From Escherichia coli (GTDB lineage Bacteria > Pseudomonadota > Gammaproteobacteria > Enterobacterales > Enterobacteriaceae), in the NCBI RefSeq assembly GCF_003334405.1, contig NZ_QOWM01000003.1: 64,000 nucleotides of DNA, one strand, 5' to 3'. The notes below the pieces were generated by a model. That model did not search any database. It was not told the DNA's origin and saw nothing but the letters and a program-made list of their open reading frames with translations. Below, in pieces: positions 6,711-10,388 of this stretch (position 1 is the stretch's first letter; each line of letters starts with the position of its first letter). Made by a program: the position numbers and the translations under genes.

Positions 6711-7643
6711 ATGTGGTCAGAATATTCACTCGAAGTTGTTGATGCGGTAGCGCGTAATGGTAGTTTTAGCGCTGCGGCACAGGAGCTGCATCGCGTTCCT
6801 TCTGCGGTCAGCTATACCGTGCGTCAGCTGGAAGAGTGGCTGGCGGTGCCGCTCTTTGAACGACGGCACCGTGATGTGGAGCTGACCGCTGCTGGAGCGT
6901 GGTTTCTCAAAGAAGGGCGCTCTGTTGTCAAAAAAATGCAGATCACCCGCCAGCAATGTCAGCAGATAGCGAACGGCTGGCGCGGTCAGTTAGCTATCGC
7001 AGTGGATAATATTGTCAGGCCAGAACGTACACGGCAGATGATCGTTGATTTTTATCGCCATTTTGATGATGTCGAACTTCTTGTCTTTCAGGAAGTGTTC
7101 AACGGTGTCTGGGATGCGCTTTCCGACGGGCGCGTGGAACTGGCGATTGGCGCAACACGCGCGATTCCGGTAGGCGGTCGTTATGCCTTCCGGGATATGG
7201 GGATGCTAAGCTGGAGTTGCGTTGTTGCCAGTCACCACCCGCTGGCGTTGATGGATGGCCCGTTCAGCGATGATACGTTGCGCAACTGGCCGTCGTTGGT
7301 GCGCGAAGACACCTCGCGAACGCTACCTAAACGTATTACCTGGTTGCTGGATAACCAAAAAAGAGTTGTCGTGCCTGACTGGGAATCATCGGCAACCTGT
7401 ATCTCGGCAGGATTATGCATAGGGATGGTGCCAACACATTTCGCCAAACCGTGGCTTAATGAGGGGAAGTGGGTAGCATTAGAACTGGAAAACCCCTTTC
7501 CGGATTCGGCATGTTGTCTGACATGGCAGCAAAATGATATGTCGCCTGCGTTAACCTGGTTGCTTGAGTATCTCGGCGATAGTGAGACGCTGAATAAGGA
7601 GTGGCTGCGGGAGCCGGAAGAGACTCCCGCAACGGGTGATTAA
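6711..7643 (+). CDS. ydhB: LysR-family transcriptional regulator (PunR/YdhB), 310 aa
   Basis: N-terminal helix-turn-helix ([36 protein letters not shown]) followed by a LysR substrate-binding domain; divergent from ydhC. Confidence 0.9.
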
Positions 7644-8665
7644 CGACGATAGTCGCGGAACGGGCCGTCAGCCACGGAGCGGCGTTCAATCAAGCGCGGA
7701 TGCACTTCAATAGACTGCGGTTCTTCACGTTTGTTGACGATACGATCCAACAGCATGTTGAACGCTGTTTCACCCAGCGAATCTTTTGGCTGATGGATCG
7801 TGGTCAGCGCCGGCGTAAAATAGCGCGCGTTGCGCACGTTATCATAACCGATCAGCGAAACATCCTGCGGGACGCGCAGGCCCATTTCATCAGCAGCACA
7901 AAGTGCGCCCATTGCCATGATATCGCCACCACAGAAGACGGCAGTAGGGCGATGCGGCTGCGACAGGATTTGCTGCATGGCGCGATAACCGGATTCAGGT
8001 TCAAAGTCACCCTGCACAATCCAGCTTTCCGGCACCTTGATCATCGCTTCTTCCATCGCCTTCATAAAACCGGCAAGGCGGCCTGCGCCGGTGTTACGTT
8101 CCAGCGGGCCGGGGATGACGCCGATTTCGCGGTGACCGCGTTCAATCAGATAACGCCCGGCCATGTAGCCGCCTTCGAACGCGTTATCAATGACCGCATC
8201 GGTGAAGTCAGCTTTTGCTTCACCCCAGTCCATGACCACCATTGGGATATGGCGATACTCTTCCAGCATCGCCAGCAACGGCTCTGGGTACTCAGAACAC
8301 ATCACCAGCAGACCATCGACGCGTTTTTGCGCCATCATCGACAGATAAGCCCGCTGTTTCTCAAGATTGTTCCACGCATTGCCCAGAATCAGGGTGTAAC
8401 CTTTCTGGAAGCAATTTTTTTCAACTGCTTCAATGATCTCGGCAAAATAGGCCGCTTCGCTGCTGGTCGCCAGCAAACCGATAGACTTGGTGTGGTTAAC
8501 CTTCAGGCTACGCGCCACCGCGCTAGGGGAGTAGTGTAATTCTTTAATCGCTGCCCACACGGCGTTGCGCGTTTCTTCAGCGACGAAACGTGTTTTGTTG
8601 ATCACGTGTGACACAGTTGTAGTGGAAACGTTTGCTCGTTTCGCTACATCTTTTATTGTTGCCAT
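7640..8665 (-). CDS. purR: Purine repressor PurR (LacI family), 341 aa
   Basis: [56 protein letters not shown]...; overlaps the ydhB stop by 4 nt in convergent orientation. Confidence 0.97.
8623..8638. promoter_or_regulatory. PUR-box-like operator inside the 5' end of the purR coding region (autoregulation site O2)
   Basis: TGGAAACGTTTGCTCG contains the GCAAACGTTT half-palindrome core of the PurR operator (revcomp CGAGCAAACGTTTCCA). Confidence 0.6.
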
Positions 8666-8709
8666 TCCATTTCACTCCAGACCCTAACTTCAGCTCCTGC
8701 AAAATCGCA

Positions 8710-8725
8710 AGGTAAACGTTTGCCT
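8710..8725. promoter_or_regulatory. PUR-box operator in the purR 5' leader (autoregulation site O1)
   Basis: AGGTAAACGTTTGCCT (revcomp AGGCAAACGTTTACCT) matches the PurR operator consensus aCGCAAACGTTTtCnT, about 45 bp upstream of the purR start. Confidence 0.7.
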
Positions 8726-8963
8726 TTACACACCTTACGCACAACAAAAGTGTTGCGGTACGCCGGAAAAACGACACGGAGCGTCAGGAAGGGGTCAATG
8801 GCCAGTACGCAAATAGTGTAAGCGTGGAATTTTGGCCGATCTTGACGAAAAGGGGAAGTGGTAAAAACACTTATCATTATAAATGACGGGAGATTTTTTC
8901 ATCACAGTGTGTAAAAATGCGTAATATCACTTTTTGTGTGGTAATAAAAAAGGAGAAAACTTG

Positions 8964-9053
8964 ATGAGCACCGACCTTAAATTTTCACTGGTAACAACGA
9001 TTATCGTCCTCGGTTTGATCGTAGCCGTGGGTTTGACTGCCGCGCTGCACTGA
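8964..9053 (+). CDS. ynhF: Small membrane protein YnhF, 29 aa
   Basis: ATG at 8964 preceded by the AGGAGA Shine-Dalgarno; translation MSTDLKFSLVTTIIVLGLIVAVGLTAALH is a single TM helix. Too short for the supplied ORF track. Confidence 0.8.
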   Translation: MSTDLKFSLVTTIIVLGLIVAVGLTAALH

Positions 9054-9218
9054 TTTCCTCTCGAGGGAGCGCGTTCTCCCTCGCATCTCCTTCCTGTTTG
9101 TTAGCAAAATGGCAAAAGTGTTTTCTCTTTTTGTTATTTTCATTTTTTTGTGATTGCTGTCATGCTTTCGCCACTTTAATGAATATCGCGTAATGACGCG
9201 AAGAGGTGGAGATAAGGC

Positions 9219-10388
9219 ATGAAAATTAACTATCCGTTGCTGGCGCTGGCGATTGGCGCGTTTGGTATCGGGACAACGGAGTTCTCGCCAATGGGCTTGT
9301 TGCCCGTCATTGCGCGCGGTGTGGATGTCTCGATTCCCGCTGCCGGAATGTTAATCAGTGCCTATGCAGTTGGCGTAATGGTTGGCGCGCCGCTGATGAC
9401 GCTTCTACTTTCTCATCGTGCCCGCCGCAGTGCGTTGATTTTCCTGATGGCAATTTTCACGCTCGGCAACGTACTTTCCGCCATCGCGCCGGATTATATG
9501 ACCCTGATGCTTTCACGCATTTTGACCAGCCTGAATCACGGAGCATTTTTTGGTTTGGGTTCAGTCGTGGCCGCAAGCGTGGTGCCAAAACATAAACAGG
9601 CCAGCGCAGTTGCCACTATGTTTATGGGGTTAACCCTGGCAAATATCGGTGGCGTGCCGGCGGCGACCTGGTTGGGTGAAACCATCGGCTGGCGGATGTC
9701 ATTTCTGGCAACGGCGGGGCTGGGAGTGATTTCAATGGTAAGTCTGTTCTTCTCATTACCTAAAGGTGGTGCAGGGGCACGACCTGAAGTGAAAAAAGAG
9801 CTGGCGGTATTAATGCGTCCGCAGGTGCTGTCTGCATTGCTGACGACGGTACTGGGAGCTGGTGCAATGTTTACTCTCTACACCTATATCTCTCCGGTAC
9901 TGCAAAGTATTACCCACGCAACACCGGTGTTCGTCACGGCAATGCTGGTGCTGATTGGTGTCGGATTCTCTATCGGTAACTATCTCGGCGGCAAACTGGC
10001 AGATCGTTCAGTTAACGGCACGTTGAAAGGCTTTTTGTTGTTGTTGATGGTGATTATGCTGGCAATCCCGTTCCTGGCCCGCAATGAGTTCGGCGCAGCT
10101 ATTAGCATGGTGGTGTGGGGCGCAGCAACCTTTGCGGTCGTACCGCCGTTACAGATGCGCGTGATGCGTGTCGCCAGTGAAGCGCCAGGTCTGTCTTCAT
10201 CAGTCAATATTGGTGCCTTTAATCTTGGAAATGCGCTGGGAGCAGCTGCTGGTGGTGCGGTAATTTCCGCTGGGCTGGGATACAGCTTTGTGCCGGTGAT
10301 GGGAGCGATTGTCGCGGGACTGGCATTATTGCTGGTGTTTATGTCAGCCAGAAAACAACCTGAAACAGTTTGCGTTGCTAACAGCTAA
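9219..10388 (+). CDS. ydhP: MFS transporter YdhP, 389 aa
   Basis: 12-TM MFS-like ORF; a GAGGTGGAGATAAGGC ribosome-binding region precedes the ATG. Confidence 0.92.
   Translation: MKINYPLLALAIGAFGIGTTEFSPMGLLPVIARGVDVSIPAAGMLISAYAVGVMVGAPLMTLLLSHRARRSALIFLMAIFTLGNVLSAIAPDYMTLMLSRILTSLNHGAFFGLGSVVAASVVPKHKQASAVATMFMGLTLANIGGVPAATWLGETIGWRMSFLATAGLGVISMVSLFFSLPKGGAGARPEVKKELAVLMRPQVLSALLTTVLGAGAMFTLYTYISPVLQSITHATPVFVTAMLVLIGVGFSIGNYLGGKLADRSVNGTLKGFLLLLMVIMLAIPFLARNEFGAAISMVVWGAATFAVVPPLQMRVMRVASEAPGLSSSVNIGAFNLGNALGAAAGGAVISAGLGYSFVPVMGAIVAGLALLLVFMSARKQPETVCVANS

Follow-up and report, generated by a model that had tools for sequence, protein, structure and literature searches.

Does the short open reading frame that lies between purR and ydhP in Escherichia coli, 29 codons long and situated in DNA that Rfam types as a non-coding small RNA, encode a protein, and if so, which one? 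The question is addressed here in a window of 64,000 nucleotides, meaning the whole stretch of DNA that was analysed (NCBI RefSeq assembly GCF_003334405.1, contig NZ_QOWM01000003.1), to which all positions below refer. The gene order in this window, punC-punR-purR-cydH-ydhP-sodB-mepH, is the usual one for E. coli. The reading frame is flanked by purR (7640-8665, minus strand) and ydhP (9219-10388, plus strand), and the coding sequence and its ribosome-binding site are placed as follows:

8964-9053, plus strand: coding sequence of cydH (ynhF), with ATG at 8964 and a TGA ending at 9053, 29 codons and a stop (RefSeq, PDB, NCBIfam and conservation in 80 species)
8950-8956, plus strand: Shine-Dalgarno sequence AAGGAGA, 8 nt before the cydH ATG

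The frame reads ATG AGC ACC GAC ... CTG CAC TGA and its translation is the 29-residue peptide MSTDLKFSLVTTIIVLGLIVAVGLTAALH. With a probability of about 0.97, positions 8964-9053 are cydH (formerly ynhF, also cydY), the gene for the one-helix fourth subunit of cytochrome bd-I, which is found there together with CydA, CydB and CydX.

When the purR-ydhP spacer is compared with 5,426 complete E. coli genomes (megablast), a match is found in all of them, essentially at full length in 5,422, and the RefSeq label on the matched feature is cydH, "cytochrome bd-I accessory subunit CydH." The peptide MSTDLKFSLVTTIIVLGLIVAVGLTAALH is identical in 29/29 residues to chain H of PDB entry 6RKO, a cryo-EM structure of cytochrome bd-I in which this chain bears the name 'Cytochrome bd-I ubiquinol oxidase CydH (Uncharacterized protein YnhF)', and in all 8 PDB entries (6RKO and seven more) contain this sequence. 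It also matches the NCBIfam equivalog NF033411 (small_mem_YnhF) over profile positions 1-29 of 29, with 50.2 bits (E 1.7e-13) against a curated cut-off of 30 bits; at E<=1, no NCBIfam family besides NF033411 was matched by the peptide. CydH fits the description of this family, being a protein of 29 aa in which a short polar N-terminus is followed by one transmembrane helix, and its length is invariant in the 80 species compared. The gene is the same as that of E. coli K-12 (CydH/CydY/YnhF; UniProt A5A618; PDB 6RKO chain H; NF033411), in the same position between purR and ydhP, and nothing in it is different.

The original prediction, made from the letters of the DNA, had described a 29-residue frame with one hydrophobic helix between purR and ydhP, and its coordinates are exact to the base. 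The peptide is strongly hydrophobic, with a GRAVY of 1.63 and a best 19-residue window of 2.53 that starts at residue 10. The good Shine-Dalgarno sequence which had been pointed out is borne out as well: an 8-nt spacer (8956-8963) separates AGGAG from the ATG, and a purine-rich element of the GGAG or GGGG type occupies this position in essentially all 80 species. The assignment as the small membrane protein gene ynhF is right as to identity, but the name is outdated (the gene is now cydH) and the known function in bd-I had been left out. The gene had further been presented as missed, which is true only under the ORF-length cut-off used for that reading and not for public annotation, where cydH is carried in essentially every complete E. 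coli genome. The gene is thus already known and fully annotated, and the finding is correct but ordinary.

The place of CydH in the oxidase was described by Thesseling et al. (2019; PMC6853902), whose purified E. coli bd-I contained an unexpected fourth subunit with one helix and a mass of ~3 kDa; mass spectrometry showed this to be YnhF, and they gave it the name CydY. [quoted passage not shown] In a review of 2022, CydH is placed in the cleft between transmembrane helices TM1 and TM9 of CydA and is again noted as encoded outside the cyd operon; the corresponding site holds a menaquinone in the mycobacterial enzymes, and in proteobacteria homologues of CydH are found together with bd oxidases of the long-Q-loop type (PMC8951039). 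More recent structures from 2025, at 2.4-2.6 Å, again show CydH (10.1101/2025.10.10.681541), and top-down mass spectrometry has detected the intact N-formylated 29-mer with 100% coverage (PMC12529367). The latter paper calls CydH a 'bd-II-oxidase' subunit, which conflicts with the structural papers, in which it belongs to bd-I and not to bd-II, and is probably a slip. Taken with the identity and purifying selection found here, the structure and mass spectrometry in the literature demonstrate that the gene exists, that it is translated and where its product sits in the complex.

The mechanism proposed for CydH is built on this position. The helix, with its N-formyl-methionine kept, assembles with CydA, CydB and CydX into the bd-I ubiquinol oxidase, where in the cryo-EM structures it occupies the CydA cleft opposite CydX and against haem b595. 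There CydH covers the cavity to haem b595 through which oxygen enters the Geobacillus enzyme (PMC6853902). By closing this wide, membrane-facing channel, CydH would leave O2 in the E. coli enzyme to reach haem d by a separate narrow channel from CydB, as was proposed in the same work (PMC6853902). Blocking of the channel as the function of CydH has thus been proposed by the structural papers from structure; neither a deletion phenotype nor kinetic data for cydH were found in the accessible literature, so that gating is a structural inference of those authors.

CydH belongs with several tiny, one-helix, CydA-bound proteins that were overlooked by early annotation, among them CydX (37 aa), AppX of bd-II, CydS of Geobacillus and CioY of Campylobacter (PMC12648545; PMC8951039). 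The gene for CydX is part of the cydABX operon, which lies outside the 64-kb window, and its product, on which assembly and stability depend, attaches to the other face of CydA, close to haem b558. By contrast, CydH is encoded elsewhere, between purR and ydhP rather than in the cydAB operon, lies near haem b595 and is thought to serve in gating rather than in a structural capacity. The two are also unrelated in sequence, NF033411 being the only family matched by CydH at E<=1.

An additional role beyond bd-I, whether of the cydH transcript, acting as a dual-function mRNA through its conserved upstream region, or of the CydH peptide, acting through other membrane-associated contacts, is unlikely. 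Still less probable is that CydH, although a real small membrane protein, has its main role elsewhere, for example as a general partner of membrane helices, and that its presence in bd-I is secondary. Such a role would agree with the position of the gene outside the cyd operon, with a positive two-hybrid result between CydH and RNase E and the dual membrane orientation reported for the peptide (PMC13232886), and with the fact that cydH can be lost in nature. However, the authors of the two-hybrid study themselves ascribe the RNase E signal to a generic transmembrane-helix effect (PMC13232886). Different laboratories have moreover independently resolved CydH in several bd-I structures, ordered at a specific site, and it is absent from the close paralogue, E. 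coli bd-II (PMC8585947). The natural loss concerns E. coli G749 (NZ_CP014488.1), one of the 4/5,426 complete genomes that give no near-full-length match to the region. In this strain ribE adjoins ydhP, and cfa, punC, punR, purR and cydH are all deleted; the absence of cydH as part of this larger deletion means that the gene is not essential and is dispensable at least in that background. No observation contradicts the identity of the protein as a subunit of cytochrome bd-I; Rfam gives the same DNA another label:

8666-9056, plus strand: match to Rfam RF02081, 'Enterobacterial sRNA STnc550' (396.5 bits, model positions 1-388 of 388)

The score lies far above the gathering threshold of 48 bits, and the match covers the same DNA as the cydH region, from which it differs in its type, that of a non-coding sRNA. 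It takes in exactly the spacer between purR and cydH and all of the cydH ORF; the ORF makes up the 3' quarter of the model (positions ~296-385), over which no structure is annotated. On this basis the locus might be the non-coding sRNA STnc550 with an incidental ORF or, in a softer form, a dual-function RNA that encodes CydH and also regulates; even with both forms counted, this is very improbable. The name comes from a candidate in the Salmonella purR/sodB spacer that Sittka et al. list in their Table S3 (2008; PMC2515195). In favor of an sRNA, cDNAs of this spacer were recovered by Hfq co-immunoprecipitation in Salmonella, but with 10 in the pull-down and 6 in the control the enrichment is only 1.7-fold, and the Northern blot is entered as 'nd' (PMC2515195). 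The Northern probe, JVO-3266, is complementary to CTGGGCGTGATTGTCGC, which in Salmonella-like sequences lies in frame within the cydH ORF at codons 16-21, with 1 mismatch in the arizonae locus.

The structure attributed to STnc550 does not strengthen the case. The Rfam consensus structure was mapped onto an alignment of 81 sequences, and changes of base pairs were counted against 500 shuffles. Changes on both sides were found in 20 pairs, compared with 16.7 in the shuffles, and 52/500 shuffles reached this value, so that the structure has no covariation support; in most of its helices the changes fall on a single side or the pairing is lost. The best-paired helix (helix 5) is the palindrome AGGTAAACGTTTGCCT at 8710-8725, which is perfectly conserved and situated in the purR leader. 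We take this palindrome, from its match, to be the PurR operator of purR autoregulation, that is, a site in DNA to which protein binds.

The spacer upstream of cydH is nevertheless unusually conserved, which would also agree with an sRNA. Between 8666 and 8963 long runs are invariant across the 80 species (for example 8790-8803, 8821-8840, 8849-8858 and 8891-8898), even though the synonymous sites of cydH are saturated. This conservation is explained more simply by the promoter, leader and operator of purR on the other strand, and the invariant runs presumably comprise the purR promoter and leader as well as promoter elements of cydH. Since the structure has no covariation support and its best-paired helix is the PurR operator palindrome, STnc550 is best understood as a region of the cydH mRNA and not as a structured sRNA. 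RF02081 does not behave as a non-coding RNA with conserved structure, and it includes the cydH ORF, which is under selection at the protein level; the family seems to be a stretch of protein-coding mRNA that was wrongly entered as an sRNA.

A non-coding reading is also opposed by the selection on codon positions in the ORF and by the detection of CydH by mass spectrometry and cryo-EM. For the comparison, syntenic regions anchored on PurR were taken from 80 species of Enterobacteriaceae, ranging from Escherichia to Franconibacter and Klebsiella. An ungapped, full-length match to the 29 residues of CydH is found by tblastn in 80/80 species, and in 80/80 the gene is opposite in strand to purR and begins ~300 nt upstream of where purR starts. 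All 80 orthologues begin with ATG, have a length of 90 nt and end at the same codon, which is TGA in 63 and TAA in 17, and among them there are 78 distinct nucleotide sequences and 53 distinct proteins. Gapped alignment columns number 0 in the cydH ORF, compared with 58/320 upstream and 86/113 downstream.

The variation that does occur in the ORF is that of a coding sequence. Positional entropy is 0.47/0.28/1.25 at codon positions 1/2/3, the third being ~4.5x the second, and dN/dS by the method of Nei and Gojobori (NG86) is ~0.05 in comparisons with E. coli and 0.11 when all pairs are taken, values in which synonymous sites are often saturated. The comparison of synonymous with nonsynonymous changes and of the conservation of the frame, which the original prediction had suggested as a check, is clearly passed in the 80 species: frame 0 contains no stops and has a pN/pS of 0.22, whereas the frames shifted by +1 and +2 contain stops in 79/79 and 26/79 sequences and have pN/pS values of 1.13 and 1.75, respectively. 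The residues M1, L5, T11, T12, L16, I19, V20 and A26 are invariant. As judged from this alignment, cydH is a translated gene under strong purifying selection, and the codon-level selection together with the protein evidence excludes both a purely non-coding locus and a chance ORF. The likelihood that the frame arose by chance in the spacer after a purine-rich stretch is negligible: at least 20 codons are reached by 78 ORFs in the 4.5 kb around cydH (mechanical ORF list), so that a length of 29 codons is by itself not above chance, but the frame is raised above chance by the comparative evidence (no break and no gap in 80/80 species, purifying selection, saturated synonymous sites and stops in the other frames), and the protein has been observed experimentally and its structure solved.

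Other frames that overlap cydH were also considered. An extension to 39 aa, starting from a TTG at 8934 in the mechanical ORF list, was rejected, as an in-frame stop lies <=6 codons upstream of the ATG in 53/80 species. An antisense ORF of 52 aa (8985-9143) was likewise rejected, the codon-position pattern being that of the cydH frame.

The cydH gene has been known since 2008 and its protein since 2010-2011, and the place of CydH in cytochrome bd-I has been known since 2019; as a discovery, the locus is therefore of no importance. Its use is that of a calibration case, in which a genuine 29-codon gene is recognisable from raw sequence. The blocking of a gas channel by CydH, resting on structure, is a modest question for the bd oxidases as drug targets. 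The residual value of the locus lies in the Rfam mislabel, since RF02081 will mislabel the cydH locus in automated RNA annotation of enterobacterial genomes, and in two elements of the putative transcription unit, a candidate extended -10 element and a covarying 3' hairpin:

8908-8919, plus strand: block TGTGnAAAAATG, candidate extended -10 element, from conservation (TG at 8910-8911, n at 8912, AAAAAT at 8913-8918)
9062-9083, plus strand: RNA hairpin, from predicted fold and covariation (arms 9062-9069 and 9076-9083; CGAGGGAG, loop CGCGTT, CTCCCTCG)

The block TGTGnAAAAATG is invariant or nearly so in all 81 aligned sequences, save at base 8912, the one position that varies freely, which in the TGn motif is the unconstrained 'n'. 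From this pattern we infer an extended -10 promoter ~45 nt upstream of cydH, from which transcription would start near 8925 and give a leader of ~39 nt. A sigma-70 promoter scan, which requires a -35 hexamer, returned nothing on the plus strand upstream of cydH. Scans for FNR sites (TTGAT-N4-ATCAA, <=2 mismatches) and ArcA sites (<=3 mismatches) gave matches at chance level only, none of them in the region before cydH, so that the sequence does not show what the reported induction at low oxygen is based on.

At the other end of the gene, the hairpin begins 9 nt past the stop codon, and nearly all species retain it, with compensatory changes. It covaries (helix 13), 6/8 of its pairs changing on both sides, with 89.7% of cells paired over the 81 sequences. 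The probable role of the hairpin is to mark the 3' end of the cydH transcript or to protect it. The tail of the hairpin is C/T-rich and includes no clean U-run, which leaves it a putative terminator, and due to the lack of a T-run it was not called by the terminator scan.

Downstream of the hairpin, ydhP follows cydH in the same orientation in 77/79 assessable species, at a median distance of 165 nt. Yet cydH is kept where ydhP is lost, in Salmonella enterica subsp. arizonae and in a Pluralibacter MAG, in both of which sodB comes directly after cydH. Furthermore, E. coli PCN061 (NZ_CP006636.1, locus 2028-2725) carries an IS1A between cydH and ydhP, with the cydH ORF and the hairpin intact. The retention of cydH without ydhP and the insertion of IS1 between the two genes indicate that cydH behaves as its own unit, and with the covarying 3' hairpin they make it a putative transcription unit of its own.

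The position of sodB directly after cydH in the arizonae and Pluralibacter loci also agrees with the name 'purR/sodB' given to the spacer in the Salmonella study of 2008. In most species a further conserved sequence, TTGTTA (9099-9104; columns 501-506 of the alignment), is situated before ydhP, ~45 nt past the stop codon of cydH, and could be a regulatory or promoter element of ydhP.
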